Source: Clostridia bacterium (GTDB lineage Bacteria; Bacillota; Clostridia; Oscillospirales; CAG-272). From it: a stretch of DNA of 64,000 bases. Of this stretch, positions 2,081-63,588 are shown in pieces (within the stretch, counting starts at the first letter, position 1; the number at the start of each line of letters is the position of its first letter). Where the stretch lies: assembly GCA_017625935.1 (NCBI GenBank), contig JAGALA010000034.1, positions 18,593-82,592 of the forward strand, given 5' to 3'. Position numbers and translations under genes: made by a program. Below the pieces are notes generated by a model. It was not told the DNA's origin and made no database searches. It saw only the letters and a list, made by a program, of their open reading frames with translations.

Positions 2081-2692
2081 TTATGCCTTAAAATATTTCG
2101 CATTCAAAACAAAATAGTTTACGCCCGAAGCAACCGTCATAAACGTCATAAGTGCAAGTGAAATATACGATGCTATCCAAAGCGTATTTACGCCGAAGCC
2201 GATATTTATTGCGTATTCAAGTAAAACTATCAAAATAGCGATAATTTGCGTTACGGTCTTTGCCTTGCCGAAGAAGTTTGCGGGGATAACACCGCCGCCG
2301 CCCTGTGCCGAAACAAGACGTACTGAGGTCACTGCAAGCTCACGGAGCACAACAATTGTTGTCACCCAAAGGAGCACATTTGCAAGCACCTTTTCGTTTA
2401 CGCCCGCGTCGCTCTTGCCGCTTAAGATGAAGAACTTAACGGTAATTGAAATCATTGCCGAGAAAACCATAAATTTATCGGCAAGCGGGTCCATAACCTT
2501 GCCGAAGGTTGTCACAAGATTGTATTTTCTTGCAATCTTGCCATCAAGCATATCGGTAAGTGAGGTGATGCCGAATACTGCCGCCGCGATAAATCCGCAG
2601 GCTGCGGGAAACGGCTCTAAATAAATAAGCACCGAGATGAAAACGGGAACTAAAAGTGCCCTTAAAATTGTTAAAATATTTGGTACGTTCAT
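2081..2692 (-). CDS. pgsA: CDP-diacylglycerol--glycerol-3-phosphate 3-phosphatidyltransferase
   Basis: The CDP-alcohol phosphatidyltransferase motif DMLDGKIARKYNLVTTFGKVMDPLADK is present. The protein has multiple TM helices. A strong RBS (aaggag) precedes the start. Confidence 0.85.
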   Translation of the reverse strand: MNVPNILTILRALLVPVFISVLIYLEPFPAACGFIAAAVFGITSLTDMLDGKIARKYNLVTTFGKVMDPLADKFMVFSAMISITVKFFILSGKSDAGVNEKVLANVLLWVTTIVVLRELAVTSVRLVSAQGGGGVIPANFFGKAKTVTQIIAILIVLLEYAINIGFGVNTLWIASYISLALMTFMTVASGVNYFVLNAKYFKA

Positions 2693-2753
2693 TTTTTCTC
2701 CTTACTCGGAAGGTGTAATTATTAAAAATACATCTTACCGTATTATAAATAAG

Positions 2754-4079
2754 CTATATTTCCTTTGCCAAAAAATCAAAATCGTCAAGCACCTCGACAA
2801 TCTTAACCTTGACAAAATCGCCTGCCCTGTGTCGTTTTTTGGCGGTAAAAAATATTTTTCCGTCAATATCGGGGGCGTCGTGCTCACTTCTTGCCACGTA
2901 GATTTTTTCTGCTGTGTCGTAGCCCTCGCAAAGCACGGTAATTTTCTTGCCGAGTCGGTTTTCGTTATATTCCTCTATAACGGATAGCTGCTCGCGCATT
3001 AAAATATCATATCTGTCCTGCTTCACCTGCTCGTCTATTTGATCGGGCAAATTGTATGCAGGAGTGTCCTCCTCGCGCGAATAGGTAAACGCGCCGAAGC
3101 GGTCAAATTTCACCTCACGGATGAACTCGCAAAGCTCGTTAAAATTATCCTCGCTCTCACCCGGGAAGCCTACAATCGCCGTTGAGCGAATTGCAATTCC
3201 CTCAATCTCGCGTAGCTTTTTCATTACCTCGCGCACTAATTTTCCGTCACCGCGCCTGTTCATTTTTTTAAGCACGGAGTCGCTGATGTGCTGCACGGGA
3301 ATGTCTATGTACTTAACGAGCTTTTCGTTTGTTTTCAGCTCGTTTATAAGCTCAGGCGTTATCTTATCGGGATAGCAGTATAAAATGCGAAGCCAAGCAA
3401 CGTCAGTTTCCTTAGCCAAGCGCGAAAGCAGCTCGTGCAGCTTATATTCGCCGTAAATATCAACGCCGTAGGCGGTTGTATCCTGACCTATAACTATAAG
3501 CTCCTTTATGCCCATTGAAACGAGTGACCTTGCTTCCTCAATAATTTCGTCCATAGGACGCGAGCGGAATTTTCCGCGAATAAGCGGTATTGCACAGTAG
3601 GTGCAGCGGTTGTTACAGCCCTCGGAAATTTTAAGGTAGGCGTATGCTTTGTCCTCAGTCAAAACTGCTCTGTCGCCGCCGAGCGCTACCTCATTTTTGT
3701 CCTTATATTCCGAAAAGCGCTCGCCATTCTCCACCTTTTTAACGGCATCTACGATAGAATGCACGCTTCCCGTACCGAGCACCGCGTCAATTTCGGGAAA
3801 CTCGGTGAGCAATTCGTCGCGGTATCGCTCTGCCAAGCAGCCCGTTACCACAATGCCCTTTAAATTTGCGTTTTCCTTTAGCCAAGCAATATCTAAAATA
3901 TTGTCGATTGACTCCTTTTTTGCATCGTTTATAAATGCGCAGGTGTTTATTATAACAATATCTGCCTCGGTTGGCTCAGGCGTGATTTCATATTCCGCCT
4001 TAAAAAGGTGAGCGAGCATAACCTCGGTATCGAGCTGATTTTTCGGACAACCAAGTGAAACAAAGCCGATTTTACTCAT
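2754..4079 (-). CDS. rimO: Ribosomal protein S12 methylthiotransferase (MiaB-family radical SAM with TRAM domain)
   Basis: The N-terminus is SLGCPKNQLDTE. The radical SAM motif is CNNRCTYCAIP. A TRAM-like C-terminus is present. The protein is 441 aa and sits next to pgsA, as is common in Firmicutes. Confidence 0.8.
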   Translation of the reverse strand: MSKIGFVSLGCPKNQLDTEVMLAHLFKAEYEITPEPTEADIVIINTCAFINDAKKESIDNILDIAWLKENANLKGIVVTGCLAERYRDELLTEFPEIDAVLGTGSVHSIVDAVKKVENGERFSEYKDKNEVALGGDRAVLTEDKAYAYLKISEGCNNRCTYCAIPLIRGKFRSRPMDEIIEEARSLVSMGIKELIVIGQDTTAYGVDIYGEYKLHELLSRLAKETDVAWLRILYCYPDKITPELINELKTNEKLVKYIDIPVQHISDSVLKKMNRRGDGKLVREVMKKLREIEGIAIRSTAIVGFPGESEDNFNELCEFIREVKFDRFGAFTYSREEDTPAYNLPDQIDEQVKQDRYDILMREQLSVIEEYNENRLGKKITVLCEGYDTAEKIYVARSEHDAPDIDGKIFFTAKKRHRAGDFVKVKIVEVLDDFDFLAKEI

Positions 4080-6501: not shown

Positions 6502-9075
6502 TTATTCATTTTCGGCGGGGGGAGTGTCTGTTTTTTCGTTATTTTCGGTTACTTGCTCGCTTACCTCGGCAGTCTCGTTTACCTCTTGCGCGTTTTCTGT
6601 ACCGTCAAATACTGCCTCGTTTTCCTCATCGTCTTCCTTGTCAACAAGAGTTGTGTTTGCAACAATTGCACCGTCGTCAAGACGCATAATCTTAACGCCC
6701 GTTGTGCTTCTCTTGTATGTTGGGATAACGTCAGTTGCGGTTCTTATGATAACACCCTCGTTTGTAATAACCATTACGTCCTTGTTATCGTCAACACACG
6801 CAATAGATGCAAGCTTACCTGTCTTTTCGCTGATATTATGAGCAATAACACCCATTATGCCGCGGTTTCTCGGCTCAAACTCGTCAAAGAAGCTCTTCTT
6901 TCCGTAGCCGTTTTCGGTAATTGTAAGAAGCTGCTTGTCATTATCAACGATAACCGCGCCGCAAACTATATCACCTGCGCGAAGGTCAATTCCGCGTACT
7001 CCGCGCGCGGTTCTGCCAACCACGTTAACCTTGTTTTCGTCAAAGCGCGCGCCGTAGCCGTTCTTTGTAGCAATAAGAATATGCTTTGTGCCGTCTGTGT
7101 GGCCAACGAAAATGAGCCTGTCGCCCTCGTCAAGATTAATGGCAATCTTACCGCCCTTGCGCTGATATTCGTATTCCGCGATATCCGTACGCTTGATTAC
7201 ACCCTTTTCCGTAACCATAGTGAGGTACTCGCCGTGTATGAACTCGGAAAGCGTTACCATAGCCGTTACGCGCTCACCCTTTTCAATTTCGATAAGGTTG
7301 ATGATATTAGAGCCCTTTGCGGTTCTTGATGCCTCGGGAATTCTATATACCTTACGCACGAAGATTTTACCGCTGTCGGTAAACATAAGCAAATAATCGT
7401 GGCTGTTTGCAACGAGAACCTTTTCAATAAAGTCCTCTTCCTTGGTGTGCATAGCGATAAGTCCCTTGCCGCCGCGTCTTTGTGCGGAGTAGGTATCTGC
7501 GGGAATTCTCTTGATATATCCCGAATTTGTAAGCGTGATTACACACTCGTGACGCTCGATAAGATCCTCAATGTCGATTTCTTCCTCACTGTCGATTATT
7601 TCGGTGCGGCGGTTATCGGCAAATTTTCTCTTAATCTCGGAAAGCTCGTCCTTGATAAGTGATTTAAGCTTACCCTCGTTTGTAATAATCTCGTTTAATT
7701 CCTTAATTGTTTCTTGGAGCTTGAGTAAGCGCTCCTCAATCTTTTGACGCTCAAGACCTGAAAGACGGCCGAGTGTCATCTCAACAATTGCCTGTGCCTG
7801 CTCGTCGGACAGACAGAAGGTTTCCTTTAATTTTTCCTTTGCCTCGGGTGTGCTTGCACTTCCTCTGATTATTGAAATAATCTCGTCAATATTGTCAAGT
7901 GCAATCTTGTAGCCCTCGTAGATATGCTCCTCTGCCTTTGCCTTTGCAAGCTCAAACTTTGTACGGCGGAGCACAACCTCCTCTTGGAATTCAACGTAGT
8001 TTTCAAGCACCTGCTTTAAATTAAGCGTCTTTGGCTCACCCTTAACGAGTGCAAGCATATTAACCGCGCAGGTATCCTGAAGCTGTGTATTCTTGTATAG
8101 AGTATTTAATATAATTTGCGCGTTTGCATCACGCTTATATTCAATTACTATTCTCATACCGGCTCTGCCCGATTCATCACGGATGCCCGAGATGCCCTCA
8201 ACGCGCTTTTCCTTAACAAGGTCGGCAATTCTTTCAACCAATTGGCTCTTATTTACCATATAAGGAATTTCGGTAATGATAATACGGTGGTGGTCCTCCT
8301 CAATTTTTGCTTTTGAGCGAACCATAACACGACCGTGTCCCGTTTCGTATGCGTCAATTATACCGCGCTTGCCGTAAATTGTCGCGCTTGTCGGAAAATC
8401 GGGACCCTTGATATATTCCATAAGGTCGGCAACCGTGCAGTCGGGGTTGTCAATTAAGTGAATTGTACCGTCGATAACCTCACCGAGATTGTGTGGCGGC
8501 ACGTTTGTTGCCATACCTACCGCAATACCAACGCTGCCGTTTACCAAGAAGTTTGGAAAACGGGAAGGAAGCACGGTTGGCTCCTTACGCGAGTTATCAA
8601 AGTTAGGAACGAAGTCAACAACGTCCTTTTCAATATCGCTCATAAGCTCGTTTGCGAGCTTTGACATTCTTGCCTCGGTATAACGGTAAGCAGCCGCGCC
8701 GTCACCGTCAACGTTACCGAAGTTTCCGTGTCCGTCAACAAGTGGATATCTGAGTGAGAACGGCTGTGCCATTCTAACCATAGTACCGTAAACGGACTGG
8801 TCGCCGTGCGGATGGTATCTACCAAGCACGTTACCAACCGTTGTCGCCGATTTTCTAAACGGCTTGTCGCTTGTTAGGTGGTCCTCATACATCGCGTACA
8901 TAACGCGTCTTTGTCCGGGCTTCATACCGTCGCGCACGTCGGGGAGCGCACGGGAAACGATAACCGACATTGAATATTCCAAAAATGCCTCGGGCACTCT
9001 TGATTCAATACTTCTGCCGACTATCATTTGCTCGGTATTTTCATAATCCAATTGATTTATATCTTTTTCACTCAT
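6502..9075 (-). CDS. gyrA: DNA gyrase subunit A
   Basis: The protein is 857 aa. The active-site region is AAAYRYTEARMS, followed by the C-terminal beta-pinwheel repeats. The gene is adjacent to gyrB. Confidence 0.97.
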   Translation of the reverse strand: MSEKDINQLDYENTEQMIVGRSIESRVPEAFLEYSMSVIVSRALPDVRDGMKPGQRRVMYAMYEDHLTSDKPFRKSATTVGNVLGRYHPHGDQSVYGTMVRMAQPFSLRYPLVDGHGNFGNVDGDGAAAYRYTEARMSKLANELMSDIEKDVVDFVPNFDNSRKEPTVLPSRFPNFLVNGSVGIAVGMATNVPPHNLGEVIDGTIHLIDNPDCTVADLMEYIKGPDFPTSATIYGKRGIIDAYETGHGRVMVRSKAKIEEDHHRIIITEIPYMVNKSQLVERIADLVKEKRVEGISGIRDESGRAGMRIVIEYKRDANAQIILNTLYKNTQLQDTCAVNMLALVKGEPKTLNLKQVLENYVEFQEEVVLRRTKFELAKAKAEEHIYEGYKIALDNIDEIISIIRGSASTPEAKEKLKETFCLSDEQAQAIVEMTLGRLSGLERQKIEERLLKLQETIKELNEIITNEGKLKSLIKDELSEIKRKFADNRRTEIIDSEEEIDIEDLIERHECVITLTNSGYIKRIPADTYSAQRRGGKGLIAMHTKEEDFIEKVLVANSHDYLLMFTDSGKIFVRKVYRIPEASRTAKGSNIINLIEIEKGERVTAMVTLSEFIHGEYLTMVTEKGVIKRTDIAEYEYQRKGGKIAINLDEGDRLIFVGHTDGTKHILIATKNGYGARFDENKVNVVGRTARGVRGIDLRAGDIVCGAVIVDNDKQLLTITENGYGKKSFFDEFEPRNRGIMGVIAHNISEKTGKLASIACVDDNKDVMVITNEGVIIRTATDVIPTYKRSTTGVKIMRLDDGAIVANTTLVDKEDDEENEAVFDGTENAQEVNETAEVSEQVTENNEKTDTPPAENE

Positions 9076-9106
9076 CTTATTTTCTCCGCAATCCTATTTC
9101 GATTGA

Positions 9107-11044
<1,938 letters not shown>

Positions 11045-11049
11045 CTATT

Positions 11050-11280
11050 TTAGCCCTTTATTATTGATGAGGTATTAAGTGGGGATAGATATACCTCGCC
11101 GTGTGTCATTACAATAAATGATTTTGGAAGCTCATAGGAAAGAGTAACTACTCTTTTTTCCTTTTGCGCTATACTTAAAAAGCTTCTTGTATTTTTTGAA
11201 ACGGTGGCTGAGTCAAGGTCGAATATGCCTAAAATCATAGATTTTTTCACAACCTTGTTGTTTCCTATATGTAAGTACAT
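11050..11280 (-). CDS. remB: DUF370-family small protein (RemB/YaaB-like)
   Basis: The protein is 76 aa. It occupies the conserved position between recF and gyrB seen in Firmicutes origin regions. Confidence 0.6.
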   Translation of the reverse strand: MYLHIGNNKVVKKSMILGIFDLDSATVSKNTRSFLSIAQKEKRVVTLSYELPKSFIVMTHGEVYLSPLNTSSIIKG

Positions 11281-12453
11281 TTAAAGCTCCGTTTCAGGCG
11301 AAATTTCGCCGTTTTCAGACTCTTGGGAATAAATACATTCATTTAGTATTTCGCCCTTTTTTCCGTCCTTAATATTTATAAAGTGACAGCATTCGTTATT
11401 TTCAAAAACGCTTCTGTCACAGGCGGTTATAATAACCTGTCTGTTCTTAATATTTGATAAAATATATTTCTTTCGTGAGTCGTCAAGCTCGGATAGCACG
11501 TCATCAAAAAGGAACACGGGGTATTCACCCTTCGACTCACGGCTGATCTCGCCCTCTGCCATTTTCATTGCCAAGGCAAGCGAGCGCTGCTGACCCTGTG
11601 AGGAATAAAGGCGTGAATCCCGTCCGTTTATCTCAATTTTTAAGTCGTCCTTATGGATTCCGAAAAGCGTCGCGCCGTATTTATACTCCCTTTCCTTATA
11701 GTCGGTTAAAAGATGCAAATATCTTTGCTTCAACGCTTCTCTGTTTTCAAAATCCTCCTCGCCGCCGTTTGACTCGTAGGTGATTTTCGGCACCTCGCGC
11801 CCATCGGTCATTTCGTTAAAGAAAATTTTAACCCAATAGTCGAGCTTTTTTATATATTCGTTTCTTATATCGGCAATATCGGCGCAAAGCGAGGCAAGCT
11901 CCTCACTGTAAACGTCAATCAAAGCCTCATTTGCTTCCCTTTCCTGTGGGTTCATCTTTATTATCGTGTTTCTTTCCTCTAAAACCTGATTGTATCTTGT
12001 CATCATCTTAAGATAAACGGGCCTTAGCTGAGAAATTGCCACGTCAATAAATTTTCTTCTCACAGACGGCGCATCCTTTATAATACCGAGGTGCGACGGA
12101 CAGAACAAAACCGCACGGAATTCACCTATTATCTCCGAGGTTTTATTAACCTTTACGTTATTACGGTAGAATTTCTTCGACTGTGACTTTGAAATTTCAA
12201 CGCCCAAGCGCGTTTCTTCATCCCTTGACTTAAAGTCCATCTTGGCATAGGCAACATTACTGTCGAAATTTACAAGCTCCTTATCCTTAAAAGCACGGAA
12301 GCTCTTTCCCCTTGCAAAGAGGTAAATTCCCTCTAAAATATTCGTCTTGCCCTGCGCGTTTTCACCGTAAATAACGTTTATTCCGTCACTGAACTCGATA
12401 ATCTCACTTTCAATATTACGAAACGAGTTAAATTCAATTTTAGTAACGTTCAT
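11281..12453 (-). CDS. recF: DNA replication and repair protein RecF
   Basis: The Walker A motif is GENAQGKTN. An SMC-like signature and Walker B (LFDDVLSELD) are present. The ATG overlaps the dnaN stop. Confidence 0.93.
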   Translation of the reverse strand: MNVTKIEFNSFRNIESEIIEFSDGINVIYGENAQGKTNILEGIYLFARGKSFRAFKDKELVNFDSNVAYAKMDFKSRDEETRLGVEISKSQSKKFYRNNVKVNKTSEIIGEFRAVLFCPSHLGIIKDAPSVRRKFIDVAISQLRPVYLKMMTRYNQVLEERNTIIKMNPQEREANEALIDVYSEELASLCADIADIRNEYIKKLDYWVKIFFNEMTDGREVPKITYESNGGEEDFENREALKQRYLHLLTDYKEREYKYGATLFGIHKDDLKIEINGRDSRLYSSQGQQRSLALAMKMAEGEISRESKGEYPVFLFDDVLSELDDSRKKYILSNIKNRQVIITACDRSVFENNECCHFINIKDGKKGEILNECIYSQESENGEISPETEL

Positions 12454-13607
12454 CAGTGTGTCATTCTCATTGGCATAATGAAGTAAGTAAATTTGCCCTC
12501 ATCGGTATTCTGCGGCTCGATAAGAACACCCGTCAACGGGTTAACAAAGCTCAATTTTGCCTTGCCGTTGTCGCAAACCTTTAATGCATCAAGGAAGAAC
12601 TTGCAGTTAAATGCAATAACAAGCTCGTCCCCCTTTATTTTTTCAATTTGGATTTCGTCATACACGTTTCCGTTTGAGGAAAGCGTTGAGATCGAAAGCA
12701 CCTCGTCTATTGTGAACTTAACGTAAGGACGGAGCGTGCCTGCTAAGTTATCCTCGATAATAAGCGCGGATCTTTCAAATGCACCTCTTAATTCCTCACA
12801 GCTTAAGTAAAATTCTATATTTGACTGCTTTGGCATAATTCTTTCGTAATCGATATAAGCCGATTCGATTTTCTTTGAGAAAAGCACGTACTTGCCAACC
12901 TTGAAAATAAGCTGACGGTTTGCAACTCTTATTTCCATTGTTTCCTCAGTATCCTTAACAAGCTTTAAAAGCTCAACTAAGGTTTTGCCGGGAACGATAA
13001 AAAGAATATAAAGCGGCGCCTTGGAGTCGTTTGCGTTTTCAAGTTCCGCCTCGTATTCAAGATGAGCCAAACGGTTACCGTCGCAGGAAACGACAGTCAT
13101 TTTTTTATCTCTTATCTCAAAGTAAGCGCCGTTGAAAACAGGACGAGTGTCGTTTTGACCTATCGCAAACAAAATCTTATTTACAAATTTTCTGAAAAGG
13201 TACTGCGGGATTTTGAAGCCGCGGTCAGCACGAAGCTCGGGAAGTGTCGGAAACTCTGAAGCGGAAAGCGCCTTGAAATCAAAGTGTGAAAGACCGTTTT
13301 CGGATTCTATAACGGTGCGAAGTGAGGTGTCAACCGAAATTTTGATAGGTCCCTTCGGCATTGTTCTTATAATCTGAAGGAGCTTGTTTGCATTAATGAT
13401 GCATTTACCTCTTTCAATAACCTGACATTCAAGCTGCGTTCTCGTACCCTTTTCAAGGTCGTATGAGGTGAGCGTACAAATATTTTCCTCTTGATTACAT
13501 TCAATCAAAATACCCTCAATGCAAGCCATTGTGTTCTTGCCCGAAACGGTATTCATAATAGGACCTATGGATGAAAGAAGTGTGTCCTTATCGAAAATAG
13601 CGATCAT
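12453..13607 (-). CDS. dnaN: DNA polymerase III beta sliding clamp
   Basis: A three-domain clamp-sized protein downstream of dnaA. The start was chosen at the ATG at 13607 (MIAIFDKD), which has a GGAAGGA RBS. The TTG at 13622 is less likely. Confidence 0.92.
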   Translation of the reverse strand: MIAIFDKDTLLSSIGPIMNTVSGKNTMACIEGILIECNQEENICTLTSYDLEKGTRTQLECQVIERGKCIINANKLLQIIRTMPKGPIKISVDTSLRTVIESENGLSHFDFKALSASEFPTLPELRADRGFKIPQYLFRKFVNKILFAIGQNDTRPVFNGAYFEIRDKKMTVVSCDGNRLAHLEYEAELENANDSKAPLYILFIVPGKTLVELLKLVKDTEETMEIRVANRQLIFKVGKYVLFSKKIESAYIDYERIMPKQSNIEFYLSCEELRGAFERSALIIEDNLAGTLRPYVKFTIDEVLSISTLSSNGNVYDEIQIEKIKGDELVIAFNCKFFLDALKVCDNGKAKLSFVNPLTGVLIEPQNTDEGKFTYFIMPMRMTH

Positions 13608-13948: not shown

Positions 13949-15334
13949 TTATGTAGATGAAATTTCTCTTATTATACTGTTAATCTCGTATTTGAAGGAA
14001 GAATCGTTCTCCATCGTTTCCTTAACAAAGTTTTCACTTGAAATAACGGTTGTGCGGTCACGGTTTATCGCCTTGCCTATTTGTGATTGAGATAGGTTTG
14101 TGCATTGGCGCGCAACGTAAACGCAAATATGTCTTGGAATTGCAATTTCCTTGTTTCTCTTCGTTGACAAAATATCGTCACGCGAGATACCGAACTTTTT
14201 GGAAACCGCCAAAATGATATCGTCCATCTTCTTTTGATCGGAGTCCTTCTTCGGCACAAACTCGTTAATCGAGCTTTTTACCCTTTCCATGCTGATGTCC
14301 CCACCCTCAAGGAGCTGAATTGCACCGAGCTTTTTGATAACTCCCTCAAGCTGTCTTATCGACGAGGTCACGTTTTCTGCAAGATAGCTTATGATGTCAC
14401 TTGAAATCTGAAGGTGATTTAGGAGTGCCTTTTGCTGTAAAATCGCACATCTTAAATCATAGTCGGGGAGCTGAATATCAACGATAAGACCTGCCATAAA
14501 TCTTGTACGAAGGCGATCCTCAAGCGATCTCATTTCGTGCGGGGGACGGTCAGAGGTGAAAATCATTTGCTTGTTTGCGTCGTAAATTGCATTGAAGGTG
14601 TTGAAAAACTCCTCCTGAAGTGATTCCTTACCTGCAACGAAGTGAATATCGTCGATAAGCAAAACATCCGCATCTCTGTACTTATTTTTGAATTCGTCCG
14701 TTGAGTGCTTTCTTATTGCAGTAAAGAGCTGATTTGCAAATTCCTCACCCTTTACGTAAACGATTTTCTTGTTTGGATAGCCAGCTAAAATTCTGTTTAC
14801 GATAGCGTAAAGCAAGTGCGTTTTGCCGACACCGCTCGGACCGTAAATAAAGAGTGGGTTATAGTCCTTTTTGCTAAAGCCGTCAAAGTTCTGACTTGCA
14901 ACCGCAACCGCCGCTGAGTTTGCAAACTTGTTTGAAGCACCGACAACGAAGTTTTCAAAGGTATATTCCGAGCGGAAGCTGTCTTGTGCGCTCGGCACAG
15001 GTGTCACTGTTGATGCTACACTGCTTTGTATAGGTGATGGCTGCATCTCCTTTAAAGAGAGGTCAACCTCGCCGTGCTCGGATGAATAAATAACAACGGA
15101 TGGCTCAAAGCCCAAAATTTCATTTAGCTTGTCCGCCATTGAGATAGCAAAGCGCTGCTGAATAATTTTCTTTTTTAAGTCAGTCGGGGAAACGAAAATT
15201 GCCTCGTTTTCATCAAGAGATGCAAGCTTAAGGTCGCCAAACCATAAATTCACCGCAGTTGACGAGTTGTCCTGAAGCATCATTTCAACAAGCATTGAGC
15301 GAATGCTTTCAAGGTCAAGAGAATTAAAATTCAT
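13949..15334 (-). CDS. dnaA: Chromosomal replication initiator DnaA
   Basis: The AAA+ Walker A motif is GPSGVGKTH and the C-terminal DnaA-box-binding domain is present. The start was chosen at MNFNSLD (ATG at 15334), which is preceded by AAAGGAG. Confidence 0.96.
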   Translation of the reverse strand: MNFNSLDLESIRSMLVEMMLQDNSSTAVNLWFGDLKLASLDENEAIFVSPTDLKKKIIQQRFAISMADKLNEILGFEPSVVIYSSEHGEVDLSLKEMQPSPIQSSVASTVTPVPSAQDSFRSEYTFENFVVGASNKFANSAAVAVASQNFDGFSKKDYNPLFIYGPSGVGKTHLLYAIVNRILAGYPNKKIVYVKGEEFANQLFTAIRKHSTDEFKNKYRDADVLLIDDIHFVAGKESLQEEFFNTFNAIYDANKQMIFTSDRPPHEMRSLEDRLRTRFMAGLIVDIQLPDYDLRCAILQQKALLNHLQISSDIISYLAENVTSSIRQLEGVIKKLGAIQLLEGGDISMERVKSSINEFVPKKDSDQKKMDDIILAVSKKFGISRDDILSTKRNKEIAIPRHICVYVARQCTNLSQSQIGKAINRDRTTVISSENFVKETMENDSSFKYEINSIIREISST

Positions 15335-26547: not shown

Positions 26548-26633
26548 GTAGGGTAAGATATTATCTTCCCGCGTATCAAGCAGATGTTAATTAAATCGCA
26601 TTCGCGTTTGTAGGGGAGGGGCTTGCTCCTCCC
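26548..26633 (+). repeat. Two GTAGGG-plus-hairpin REP-like elements
   Basis: The two elements are gtagggtaagatattatcttccc (26548-26570) and gtaggggaggggcttgctcctccc (26610-26633). Confidence 0.7.
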
Positions 26634-26713
26634 GCCTTTCGGATTAAGTCCTGACCTTGTCAGGATGAAGTCGCTTCGCGGTTATATTACCTTCCCTTAC
26701 AAAATCAAAAGGT

Positions 26714-33420: not shown

Positions 33421-33423
33421 CAA

Positions 33424-33453
33424 AAATCGCAGAGGTTGTCCTCTGCGATTTTG
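33424..33453 (+). terminator. Rho-independent terminator
   Basis: The stem aaatcgcagagg / cctctgcgattt is followed by a T-run. Confidence 0.8.
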
Positions 33454-33461
33454 ACAAGAAT

Positions 33462-33974
33462 ATGGAAAGAAACGAATTACCCAAAAGAAAACCGATAAGG
33501 TTAAATAATTTTCATTACGGTGCGGGATATGCATATTTTATCACCGTATGCACGAAGGATAGAGCGAAAATTTTATCAAAAATAACCGTAGGGGACGGCG
33601 CCCTCGACGTCCCGAAAACAGAATTAACAAAATGCGGTGAAATTGTTGAGAAATATATTTTATCTACAAATAAAATAAATAATGTATGTGTTGACAGATA
33701 TGTAATTATGCCGAATCATTTTCATATGATTATTAGGATTGAGGGAGATTCAAATGATTTGGAAAACGGGACGTCGAGGGCGCCGTCCCCTACAAACAAA
33801 ACAATTCCGCATATTGTTTCAACCTTGAAAAGATTCTGCAATAAAGAAATAGGGGAAAACATCTTCCAACGCTCATTCTACGACCACGTGATACGCGGAC
33901 GCGAGGACTACGAGGAGATATCAAGGTATATTTACGAAAACCCACTAAATTGGAAAAATGATGAATTATACTAA
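33462..33974 (+). CDS. REP-associated tyrosine transposase (RAYT; IS200/IS605 Y1-HUH TnpA-like)
   Basis: The HUH motif is MPNHFHMII. The C-terminal catalytic Tyr region is YDHVIRGREDYEEISRYIYENPLNW. The protein is 170 aa. Confidence 0.8.
   Translation: MERNELPKRKPIRLNNFHYGAGYAYFITVCTKDRAKILSKITVGDGALDVPKTELTKCGEIVEKYILSTNKINNVCVDRYVIMPNHFHMIIRIEGDSNDLENGTSRAPSPTNKTIPHIVSTLKRFCNKEIGENIFQRSFYDHVIRGREDYEEISRYIYENPLNWKNDELY
33588..33614 (+). repeat. REP-like element inside the RAYT ORF (left arm; translated as VGDGALDVP)
   Basis: gtaggggacggcgccctcgacgtcccg is the perfect reverse complement of 33767-33793. Confidence 0.9.
33767..33793 (-). repeat. REP-like element inside the RAYT ORF (right arm; translated as GTSRAPSPT)
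   Basis: cgggacgtcgagggcgccgtcccctac forms a 27/27 inverted repeat with 33588-33614. Confidence 0.9.
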
Positions 33975-34001
33975 AAAACAGCCACAGGGTGGCTGTTTTT
34001 T
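33973..34001. terminator. Bidirectional terminator
   Basis: The sequence is aaaaaa-cagccac-agg-gtggctg-tttttt, between convergent genes. Confidence 0.8.
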
Positions 34002-34227
34002 AATACAATTTTCTCGGTGTTTTAATGATGTCCGCAATATAGTCAAGCGATACGTCGTAAAATTTGGCAAGAGTGATAAAATGGTGCATCGGCATTTCTC
34101 TTTTGCCGCTTTCGTACAATTGATATTGTTGAGGTGCGATGCCTAATACTTCTGCAATATCTGCTTGTGTCTTATCTAAATCCTCACGCAAATCGCGCAA
34201 TCGATGATAATAATACAACCAACTCAC
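34000..34227 (-). CDS. XRE-family helix-turn-helix regulator (cassette 2)
   Basis: The HTH core is KTQADIAEVLGIAPQQYQLYESGKREMP. The start is a non-ATG codon (GTG at 34227 or in-frame TTG at 34218) downstream of AAGGAG. Confidence 0.8.
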   Translation of the reverse strand: MSWLYYYHRLRDLREDLDKTQADIAEVLGIAPQQYQLYESGKREMPMHHFITLAKFYDVSLDYIADIIKTPRKLY

Positions 34228-34336
34228 TCCTTTTCAATAATATATTCAAATTTTAACAAAAACATTCAAATGAATGATTGAAAAACAATCAAATGATTGT
34301 TAAAATAGAATTATAACTACTTAAGGAGAATATATT

Positions 34337-34606
34337 ATGAAATTTAATTACGAAAAATTTACGGAAAAAGCACTTGCAACAGGAATGGCGGATGAGTTTG
34401 AGTCGCAAATTTTCAAAAAACGTCAGGTTGACATTATGAGAAAAATAGATTTACTGACAGAAAAGCTATCAAAGACGCTGACCAAGGAGCAACGCGCGAT
34501 TTTTGAGCAGCTTGAGGAATGTGAAATTGAATATGAGGATGCATTGGAAAAGCAGGCATTTTGTAAGGGATATATGCTTGCAAGCTCGCTTTTTCTAATT
34601 GAATGA
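34337..34606 (+). CDS. Small helical protein partnered with the XRE regulator (cassette 2)
   Basis: The protein is 89 aa and divergent from the XRE gene. The RBS is aaggag. It is a paralog of 20151-20417. Confidence 0.6.
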   Translation: MKFNYEKFTEKALATGMADEFESQIFKKRQVDIMRKIDLLTEKLSKTLTKEQRAIFEQLEECEIEYEDALEKQAFCKGYMLASSLFLIE

Positions 34607-43965: not shown

Positions 43966-44065
43966 CGTGTCAACTCCTTCCACCGCTTACATAGTGAGTG
44001 CGTAGTTAAAGTATATACGCTGCGGTCCCTCTCTGCACAAGGCACGCCGCAAGGGTGCCTCAAAG

Positions 44066-44122
44066 ATGGAGGCTATTGGAAAGGCATTCGAGGGACTTCT
44101 CAACAGATACTTCAAGAAATAA
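44066..44122 (+). pseudogene. Orphan rubrerythrin 3' fragment B (encodes ...[17 protein letters not shown])
   Basis: ggaaaggcattcgagggacttctcaacagatacttcaagaaataa aligns to the end of rbr. It is followed by a REP and a terminator. Confidence 0.8.
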
Positions 44123-44125
44123 AAT

Positions 44126-44151
44126 GTAGGGACAGGCGTCCCCGACTGTCC
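44126..44151 (+). repeat. GTAGGG-plus-hairpin REP-like element
   Basis: The sequence is gtagggacaggcgtccccgactgtcc (gggac / gtccc stem). Confidence 0.65.
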
Positions 44152-44184
44152 GTTAATACAAGGGTTTTTAGAACTAATACATAG

Positions 44185-44215
44185 AGGGAATGAGTTTAAC
44201 TTGTTCCCTTTTTTG
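44185..44215 (+). terminator. Rho-independent terminator
   Basis: The stem agggaa...ttccct is followed by TTTTTT. Confidence 0.7.
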
Positions 44216-44401
44216 TTGCACTTTTTCCACAAAAACATGGAAAATTTATGGAATTTTGAAGGTATTGTTTTTGGAAAAAGGTCAAATTATGGAATTTGTA
44301 ATTATGGAATTTTCAGATCGTGATTTTAGGATATGCAAAACTTTACAAACGATTTTAGTAATGCTATAATATTATAAACAAGCCAAATGCGAGGAGAGTA
44401 T

Positions 44402-63480: not shown

Positions 63481-63497
63481 AAAACGTGAGGGGGCGG

Positions 63498-63588
63498 GAC
63501 GTCGCCCAAAACAGGTCGTCGAGGACGTCGCTAAAACGGGTCGTCGAGGACGTCGCTAAAACGGGTCGTCGGGGACGTCGACCCCTAC
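63498..63588 (-). repeat. REP-like element expanded into about 3.6 tandem 25/26-bp units (GTAGGGG head on the minus strand)
   Basis: Units of gacgtcgc[c/t]aaaac[a/g]ggtcgtcgag lie at 63498-63523, 63524-63548 and 63549-63573, with a partial unit at 63574-63588 ending in cccctac. Confidence 0.85.

Follow-up and report, generated by a model that had tools for sequence, protein, structure and literature searches.

The closest described relatives of the gene reported here are the REPtrons of Escherichia coli, Pseudomonas and Stenotrophomonas, in which the gene for a REP-associated tyrosine transposase (RAYT, also called TnpAREP) is flanked by repetitive extragenic palindromes (REPs) or bacterial interspersed mosaic elements (BIMEs) (Nunvar 2010, PMC2817692; Corneloup 2021, PMC8266576), and the REPINs, inverted REPs with a spacer that are mobilised as a unit (Bertels & Rainey 2011, PMC3116915). 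TnpAREP binds single-stranded REP and not the complementary iREP, requires the GTAG tetranucleotide and, for group-2 REPs, also requires an irregularity in the stem (Corneloup et al. 2021, PMC8266576). Earlier descriptions exist both of REPs that overlap RAYT gene ends and of REPs inside unrelated genes, and the same 2013 survey does not list GTAG REPs for the group of Clostridia considered here (Di Nocera 2013, PMC3733652). RAYT surveys confine the search for REPs to extragenic sequence flanking the gene, and by this measure most RAYT groups are classed as not REP-associated (Bertels 2017; Quentin 2018). Here we describe a 513-nt gene in a 64-kb stretch of DNA (the window) from a gut Clostridia bacterium of the Oscillospirales (contig JAGALA010000034.1); the gene encodes a RAYT-like protein and carries two inverted copies of a REP within its own open reading frame (ORF).

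We put at roughly 0.6 the probability that this gene is a variant of the REPtron, with the cognate REP pair placed inside the ORF of a TnpAREP/RAYT-like nuclease that would, by analogy with characterised enzymes, be expected to recognise such hairpins. The first REP (arm 1), the spacer that encodes the HUH motif and the second REP (arm 2) are laid out as in a REPIN, and the arms undergo concerted evolution, both with one another and with the extragenic REPs of the same genome. Literature searches on the arm peptides, on intragenic REPs of RAYTs and on RAYTs of Clostridia brought up neither a conserved and translated REP pair within a RAYT ORF nor a GTAG REP/RAYT system in Clostridia.

The gene, its protein and the two arms

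The arms, GTAGGGGACGGCGCCCTCGACGTCCCG and its reverse complement, are 27 nt long, 100% complementary and 152 nt apart (Table 1). Repeat search and ORF translation confirm the original prediction of a perfect 27-bp inverted repeat that is in frame and brackets the HUH motif: arm 1 is translated as VGDGALDVP (residues 43-51), arm 2 is read on the plus strand, in a different codon phase, as GTSRAPSPT (residues 103-111), and the spacer between them encodes MPNHFHMII. With a GC content of 0.70-0.77 the arms are GC-rich islands, the gene being at about 0.3, and at up to three mismatches their sequence occurs twice in the window and in none of 100 dinucleotide shuffles. Taken alone as single-stranded DNA, each arm folds into a 6+2-bp hairpin 3' of the GTAG, with -9.7 kcal/mol for the GTAG strand and -7.0 for its complement. 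The REP architecture first proposed for the arms stands as regards the GTAG head and the presence of a stem, which the conservation and covariation described below support; the stem, however, is not just GGGACG...CGTCCC but is better drawn as a run of nine pairs, GGGACGGCG/CGACGTCCC, that ends in a 4-nt loop and is interrupted at pair 7 by a G·A mismatch, which is conserved.

On the strength of profile matches, of E. coli TnpAREP as its best solved relative and of its invariant HUH, tyrosine and asparagine residues, the protein is predicted to be a divergent TnpAREP/RAYT-like HUH-Y1 nuclease, from a divergent subfamily. The closest solved relative found with a profile of 28 homologs is 4ER8, the E. 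coli TnpAREP bound to REP (hmmsearch E 9e-10), and the same structure is the top Foldseek match (E 3e-8, TM 0.58) of the AlphaFold2 (AF2) model of the window protein (pLDDT 84), with the IS200/IS605 TnpAs behind it; the RAYT identity originally proposed is supported by these profile and structure matches. The HUH motif is H86-F-H88 (HFH at residues 86-88, nt 33717-33725), which aligns with HMH of 4ER8, and the putative catalytic tyrosine is Y156 (nt 33927-33929) in the motif RYIYENP, which aligns with DYIYINP. H86, H88, Y156 and N160 are invariant among the 28 homologs, and the E. coli counterpart has a single catalytic tyrosine in the C-terminal helix, with an asparagine about four residues on (Y115/N119; Quentin 2018).

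In the AF2 model, the arm 1 peptide is the tip of a beta-hairpin between strands E39-42 and E52-55, an insertion relative to 4ER8, and the arm 2 peptide is a loop between the HUH strand (E86-93) and helix 114-130, in a block with pLDDT 56-70. Model confidence is lowered at both, and the check proposed earlier, whether the inserts map to loops, comes out in favour of that placement. The arm 2 peptide aligns with the GDDDFSSRW loop of 4ER8, just N-terminal of the helix carrying K82, and K82 itself aligns with the invariant K123 of the window protein.

The family is large, with 4153 clusters at 90% identity in a word search and 1008 clusters at 50% identity with E <= 1e-30, mostly from metagenome-assembled genomes (MAGs) of gut and rumen Clostridia. 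Hosts include Oscillospirales-type MAGs, Gemmiger and Ruminococcus, and source databases label the homologs 'transposase' or 'RayT'. Two homologs lie outside the Clostridia, one without arms in a Synergistaceae MAG (L040) and one with perfect Clostridia-type arms in a genome labelled Bacteroidaceae (L071); horizontal transfer or a binning error could be responsible.

Conservation of the pair and the level of selection

We fetched the DNA of 80 homologous genomic loci (cited by L-numbers), which with the window gene make a set of 81 genes; the fetched homologs are 34-57% identical to the window protein (best-segment tblastn), and the search for loci favoured intact genes. A GTAGG...CCTAC pair lies at the same two positions in 74 of the 81, with spacers of 104-272 nt, and is perfect over 27 nt in 19 and has at most two mismatches in 51. 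Of the other seven genes, a pseudogene (L008) and L046 have arms, L045 has one internal arm together with flanking REPs, and four, considered further below, are armless. The REP positions are occupied in about 95% of the 81 genes, no other position of the ORF bears REPs, and the pair is always oriented head-outward, around the catalytic motif. The pair is not a strain-specific accident, as would have been suspected had homologs generally lacked it.

The sequence of the arms varies widely between genomes, and what is always retained is GTAGGG and a self-complementary stem, as in GGGACGATG-ccca-CATCGTCCC, GGCGGGGTG-ccct-CACCCCGCC, GGGAGGGG-ttc-CCCCTCCC and GGGCGATT-cacg-AATCGCCC. GTAGGG is invariant in the 67 distinct 27-mer arms that form our covariation set, and the hairpins have either nine pairs and a 4-nt loop or eight pairs and a 3-4-nt loop. 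Arm class and the protein outside the arms co-diverge (Spearman -0.35, with 0 of 2000 permutations as extreme); in L001, whose protein is 57% identical to that of the window, the arms are identical at 27 of 27 positions. In distant subfamilies (P0260, P0262) the arm peptides are quite different, e.g. VGAIHESP and VGATALGRP, and the intragenic arrangement probably extends well past the subfamily that was sampled as DNA.

Selection acts on two separate hairpins, and neither on the peptides nor on an arm-arm duplex. Across the 67 distinct arms, 92% of the cells of the nine-pair stem are paired, compared with 70.8% in shuffles and 31-54% in slid-register controls, and cells with changes on both sides number 128 against 30±5.5, a value that none of 500 shuffles reaches. 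All four Watson-Crick combinations occur at each of stem pairs 3-5. At pair 7 a purine·purine mismatch is conserved (G·A 55, A·G 9, A·A 5), reminiscent of the stem irregularity needed by group-2 TnpAREP. The two-hairpin conclusion follows from the differences between arm 1 and arm 2 of the same gene, since these are compensated inside each arm: 20 stem pairs change on both sides, 19 of them remaining Watson-Crick in both arms, only four stem pairs differ on one side, and the loops vary most (29 positions). Arm-to-arm identity is a by-product of concerted evolution or of shared specificity, and the idea of a functional arm-arm inverted pair, implicit in the original prediction, is weakened accordingly.

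The same comparisons bear on a reading that we regard as unlikely, namely that the pair is a cis-regulatory RNA, whose 27-bp messenger RNA (mRNA) duplex or two hairpins block ribosomes or make an RNase III site, the REP identity of the DNA being secondary. The predicted minimum-energy RNA fold of the unit (33588-33793) is a single long hairpin closed by the 27-bp arm:arm stem around the HUH region (-88.3 kcal/mol, z -9.8), the mismatch counts of most pairs (51 of 74) would allow such a duplex, and the gene start described below, just past a terminator, is consistent with tightly limited expression. Against such a role, compensation takes place within arms and not between them, with the loops diverging fastest; both arms retain the purine·purine mismatch on their GTAG strand, which leaves arm 2 on the mRNA with the weaker pyrimidine·pyrimidine form; and the identical sequence is mostly extragenic elsewhere. 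A scan of the locus against Rfam at permissive E-values likewise gave no family for the arms, its sole match being that of the downstream terminator to unrelated families.

The arm peptides are passengers, because their frame, sequence and copy number vary. Compensatory changes rewrite both peptides jointly (VGVGALDDP with GSSRAPTPT; VGTGVLDCP with GQSGTPVPT), a 1-nt deletion in an arm of L083 leaves the GGGACG/CGTCCC stem intact and is read as ASTSQ rather than ALDVP, and the frame of arm 2 differs among subfamilies, ending in ...SPT or, in P0260 and P0262, in ...SPLR or ...SPLQ. In a degenerate position-wise test for reverse-complement-compatible peptides, shuffled sequences gave a median run of 19 nt and a maximum of 30, and we counted only runs of at least 24 nt. 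VGDGALDVP and GTSRAPSPT do recur in many homologs, which would suit conserved protein motifs whose complementarity is coincidence or relic; the four-way compensatory changes, the frameshifts and the alternative frames contradict this explanation, and the mostly non-coding setting of the identical 27-mer elsewhere leaves it practically untenable.

Dispersed REPs and possible movement of the unit

The flanks of the homologous loci, 1.16 Mb in total, hold 157 GTAGGG hairpins (stem of at least 6 bp) outside the RAYT-like genes, against 9.2±3.0 in composition-preserving shuffles, and 30 copies of the class of the locus's own arms (at most 3 mismatches in 24 nt), where permutation of the arms between loci gives 6.5±2.7, both counts being slightly inflated by hairpins that are arms of adjacent paralogs, which occur in twos or threes in L004, L012, L037 and L042. 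None of 2000 permutations reaches 30. Many of the own-class copies lie within 100 nt of gene ends or in head-outward doublets with short spacers, and about a dozen homologous loci have an additional REP copy within about 100 nt of the gene. In a metagenome scan, the window's exact arm matched at least 120 stretches; the first 80 of those listed (L084-L163) were classed by ORF context, and 78 of their 82 copies are outside RAYT-like ORFs. Among the 120 listed stretches, the stop-to-stop frame covering the match has a median of 93 aa, and 47 of 101 analysed matches have a second GTAGGG hairpin no more than 250 nt away. The arms are members of a REP family that is scattered through gut Clostridia genomes; the alternative outcome envisaged at the start, arms unrelated to extragenic REPs, is at odds with the 30 extragenic matches where 6.5 were expected.

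Within the ORF, the arms expand in tandem like extragenic REP arrays, but only in multiples of 3 nt. The L081 gene has five in-frame copies of arm 1 with a 42-nt period, and other proteins have up to five copies of arm 1 or four of arm 2.

The arm-spacer-arm unit itself has been copied in L032, where a second unit, 96-99% identical to the internal one, lies 27 nt past the stop codon and its homology is bounded exactly by GTAGGGG at the start and CCCCTAC at the end. This external unit is without a 23-24-nt stretch that includes the HUH codons (MPNHIHMI), the gap seemingly lying between short TGATTAT direct repeats. L004 has three RAYT-like paralogs within 5 kb (8045-12997), one of them without the HUH motif: its ORF (8045-8365) matches only profile positions 3-42 and 110-166, positions 43-109 being gone, and the junction is at the GTAGGG head. 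A pseudo-copy in L021 ends exactly at CCCTAC. The unit copy in L032 and the segment loss in L004 are the products expected of a REPIN and for that reason suggest REPIN-like behaviour of the unit. We also considered whether extragenic doublets in general are fragments of the gene; this is true of L032 only, the spacers in L025, L035, L041, L061, L073 and L037 being unrelated.

These cases also bear on the proposal that the segment is a genetic switch, excised or inverted by the enzyme or by replication slippage so that the nuclease is off in part of the population, which we consider very unlikely. The L004 ORF without the arm-bounded segment, the exact bounds of the L032 unit and the end of the L021 pseudo-copy all fit it, and inversion of the window unit would lead to a stop 14 codons past arm 1 (judged from the minus-strand ORF 33722..33862). 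Excision, as a part of the original prediction, can point to the anecdotal cases of L004 and L032; inversion cannot, since all 81 genes have the intact orientation, and none is an inverted allele, in a set biased to intact genes. Moreover, the L004 copy with the deletion is a diverged paralog rather than an allele, the two REPs are on opposite strands whereas a Y1 HUH enzyme acts on a single one, and no invertase gene is adjacent in the window.

For about 7 kb to either side the window gene is free of flanking REPs, both of its REPs being internal. Near-identical in class to the second intergenic REP of Table 1 are the arms of L009, L010, L017 and L025. The array, between two plus-strand genes (TRF period 25, 3.3 copies, 93% matches), is related in class to the arms of L002, L036 and L053, and resembles a REP array in the course of growth or decay through unit duplication. 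Since the other-class intergenic REPs of the window serve as intragenic arms in other genomes, they suggest further RAYT-like paralogs elsewhere in its genome. RAYTs typically occur once per genome; one MAG has, on separate contigs, paralogs with different arms (L002 and L034).

Table 1. REP-related features of the window (coordinates count from its first nucleotide)
Feature	Position	Strand	Basis or remark
Putative RAYT/TnpAREP-like HUH-Y1 gene, 170 aa, 513 nt	33462..33974	+	ORF, profile matches, fold
Arm 1: REP hairpin GTAG-GGGACGGCG-CCCT-CGACGTCCC-G, GTAG head on coding strand	33588..33614	+	Repeat search, folding, covariation
Spacer of REPIN-like unit, 152 nt	33615..33766	+	Encodes helix 1, strand 75-82, HUH strand
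Arm 2: same REP, GTAG head on template strand	33767..33793	-	Repeat search, folding
Intergenic GTAG-tagged REP, other class, GTAGGGGAGGGGCTTGCTCCTCCCG	26610..26634	+	Class of the intragenic arms of L070
Intergenic GTAG-tagged REP, other class, GTAGGGACAGGCGTCCCCGACTGTCCG	44126..44152	+	Class of the arms of L037, L055
Intergenic REP array	63497..63588	-	Complete GTAG-headed REP 63562-63588, GTAGGGGTCGACGTCCCCGACGACCCG, then about 3 head-less 25-nt units

A listed ORF on the minus strand (43987..44238) translates the second intergenic REP as GQSGTPVPT and is probably spurious. Among the homologous loci, L004 has four GTAG hairpins of four classes within 200 nt (14972-15170), a BIME-like mosaic about 2 kb past its paralogs. 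L047 has, on both strands of 7610-7670, a palindrome headed by GTAGGGG whose AT-rich stem of 12 bp (GTAGGGGAAACTTTCCCAAAAGTTTCCCCT) sets it apart from the GC-rich REP classes. In L035 (12927-13075), two extragenic REPs form a head-outward doublet around a 95-nt spacer that is in turn a long palindrome (...GAACGGAAATCTCCGGCGAAT...ATTCGCCGGAGATTTCTGTTC...); the whole element would form an extended hairpin.

Proposed action of the enzyme and comparison with known systems

If the gene is a REPtron variant, its enzyme would act when the gene is single-stranded, e.g. during replication, binding and cleaving or rejoining arm 1 in the coding strand and, in the template strand, arm 2; this is predicted because the TnpAREP proteins of E. 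coli, Stenotrophomonas and Marinomonas bind single-stranded REP in a strand-specific and GTAG-dependent manner and because the E. coli enzyme also cleaves and rejoins it. Such action would keep the internal arms homogenised with the dispersed REP family, and enzyme and substrate would thereby be inherited inseparably. A likely side effect or secondary function would be that the mRNA hairpins or 27-bp duplex, or the enzyme bound to its own gene, hold expression low. Low expression is plausible from the sequence, because neither a promoter nor a Shine-Dalgarno sequence can be recognised in the region before the gene (33423-33461) and the start codon is 10 nt past the terminator hairpin of the upstream gene; expression probably depends on read-through. 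At its 3' end the gene shares a bidirectional terminator-like hairpin (33964-34010) with a convergent HTH_3 gene.

The neighbours in the window are genes for a GH109-like oxidoreductase, HTH_3, DUF6809 and a hexapeptide transferase. The HTH_3 (XRE-type) and DUF6809 genes, which are divergent, adjoin the RAYT-like gene (34000-34606), and by its own annotation L083 has such a pair too, on the opposite side of the gene (2389-3001). As a conserved partner this pair was rejected, an HTH_3 homolog lying within 1 kb of the gene only in L083 (tblastn, L001-L083).

Several observations weigh against the REPtron reading. The protein scores under the curated cut-offs of both relevant families, with 72.2 bits against 80 for NCBIfam REP_Tyr_transpos (NF047646) and 19.6 against 23 for Pfam Y1_Tnp (PF01797), and binding or cleavage of the arms by this family is argued from homology. 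Inspection by eye of the sequence next to the arms revealed no conserved CT cleavage dinucleotide. The window has no copy of the gene's own arm class outside the gene, its three intergenic REP sites being of other classes. Arm class tracks protein phylogeny only loosely, with many class switches at about 70% protein identity. Four homologs (L020, L040, L048 and L064) keep an intact HUH ORF without arms; the protein therefore does not need them, and their loss is possible. Unit copy and unit loss are known from one example each, the breakpoints of the latter being ambiguous in nucleotide alignment as the L004 paralogs have diverged. Finally, T·G wobbles, at three pairs in 107 arms, are too few to tell an RNA role from a DNA role.

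Some of these points would be expected under passive residence, a less probable reading to which we nevertheless allow some weight: REPs would have entered two permissive loops once, or would re-insert beside existing REPs, and would be harmless there and updated by genome-wide homogenisation, to the benefit of neither gene nor host. The loop positions with lowered model confidence, the free variation of frame, peptide and copy number, the armless homologs with intact ORFs and the independent class switches of single arms (e.g. in L004, L014, L016 and L036) all accord with it, and there are known cases of REPs tolerated inside unrelated genes (Di Nocera 2013, PMC3733652). It has more difficulty with the constancy of the arrangement, that is, with the same two positions in proteins down to 34-57% identical to the window's, with the lack of REPs at other positions of the ORF and with the invariable head-outward orientation around the catalytic motif; REPs in other genes sit at differing sites, without such constancy. 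The suggestion made at the outset, that REPs are tolerated in surface loops, fits the model and the variable frame and copy number, but the fixed positions across a large family and the concerted evolution argue against passive invasion as the whole account.

The arms might also contribute to the enzyme. Two elements contact REP DNA in E. coli TnpAREP, strand beta-1 and the K82 helix (K82 touches the stem irregularity), and the loops encoded by the arms lie next to these. The most variable stem pairs, 3-5, directly specify the four loop residues bracketed in VG[D]GALD[V]P and G[T]SRAP[S]PT. On this view a REP would encode part of its own reader, and a class switch, by rewriting the DNA-adjacent loops, would couple substrate sequence to enzyme specificity in one piece of DNA; we consider this a long shot. 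Its further corollary, that the catalytic motif is REPIN cargo and that excision of the unit would inactivate the enzyme, seems to us as doubtful.

Should the REPtron reading be right, surveys restricted to flanks would miss REP pairs inside the ORF, and a large family (about 1000 clusters at 50% identity) that hides its cognate REPs in this way means that some 'REP-less' RAYTs may be misjudged. It would extend GTAG REP systems to abundant gut Firmicutes. With a 170-aa enzyme and two substrates in a 513-nt gene, and dozens of natural specificity variants, it would offer a compact natural system usable for the study of REP recognition, concerted evolution, REPIN mobility and possible self-regulation. 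The gene is also a clear case of dual coding, in which nucleic-acid structure and not protein sequence sets two stretches of the protein.

Like REPtrons, the system combines a protein of the same HUH-Y1 type with GTAG-tagged stem-loops, some of which have a conserved stem irregularity, and with several REP classes and apparently several paralogs per genome; REPs of the gene's class are dispersed extragenically, and some homologous loci have flanking REPs within 100 nt. It differs in that the REP pair is inside the ORF and translated, at two fixed loop positions around the HUH motif, in that the window gene is without flanking REPs, in its Clostridia hosts and in a protein that falls short of the curated family cut-offs. 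With REPINs it has in common the head-outward inverted doublet, the predicted long single-strand hairpin, one exact-boundary copy of the unit (L032) and ordinary short-spacer doublets of the same classes nearby. The spacers of REPINs proper are typically short, variable and non-coding, whereas here a conserved spacer of 104-272 nt codes for the catalytic core of the very enzyme to which REPIN mobilisation is ascribed.

IS200/IS605 TnpA has the same Y1 HUH fold and recognises single-stranded DNA hairpins that accompany its own gene. Those hairpins are, however, outside the ORF, both on the same strand, and delimit a transposon that moves the gene, whereas here they are on opposite strands and inside the ORF; as an HTH_3 gene adjoins both the window gene and its close relative L083, the former seems to be a resident gene. 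An inverton would be expected to occur in both orientations and to have an invertase nearby, neither of which applies to the 81 genes or to the neighbours in the window. Intragenic REPs and the palindromic elements of Rickettsia (Di Nocera 2013, PMC3733652) are likewise in frame, probably in loops, and tolerated, but they are sporadic and lineage-specific, in unrelated genes and at varying sites. Here, by contrast, the host gene is that of the putative REP-type nuclease itself, the sites are fixed over about 1000 clusters at 50% identity, and the copies evolve in concert.

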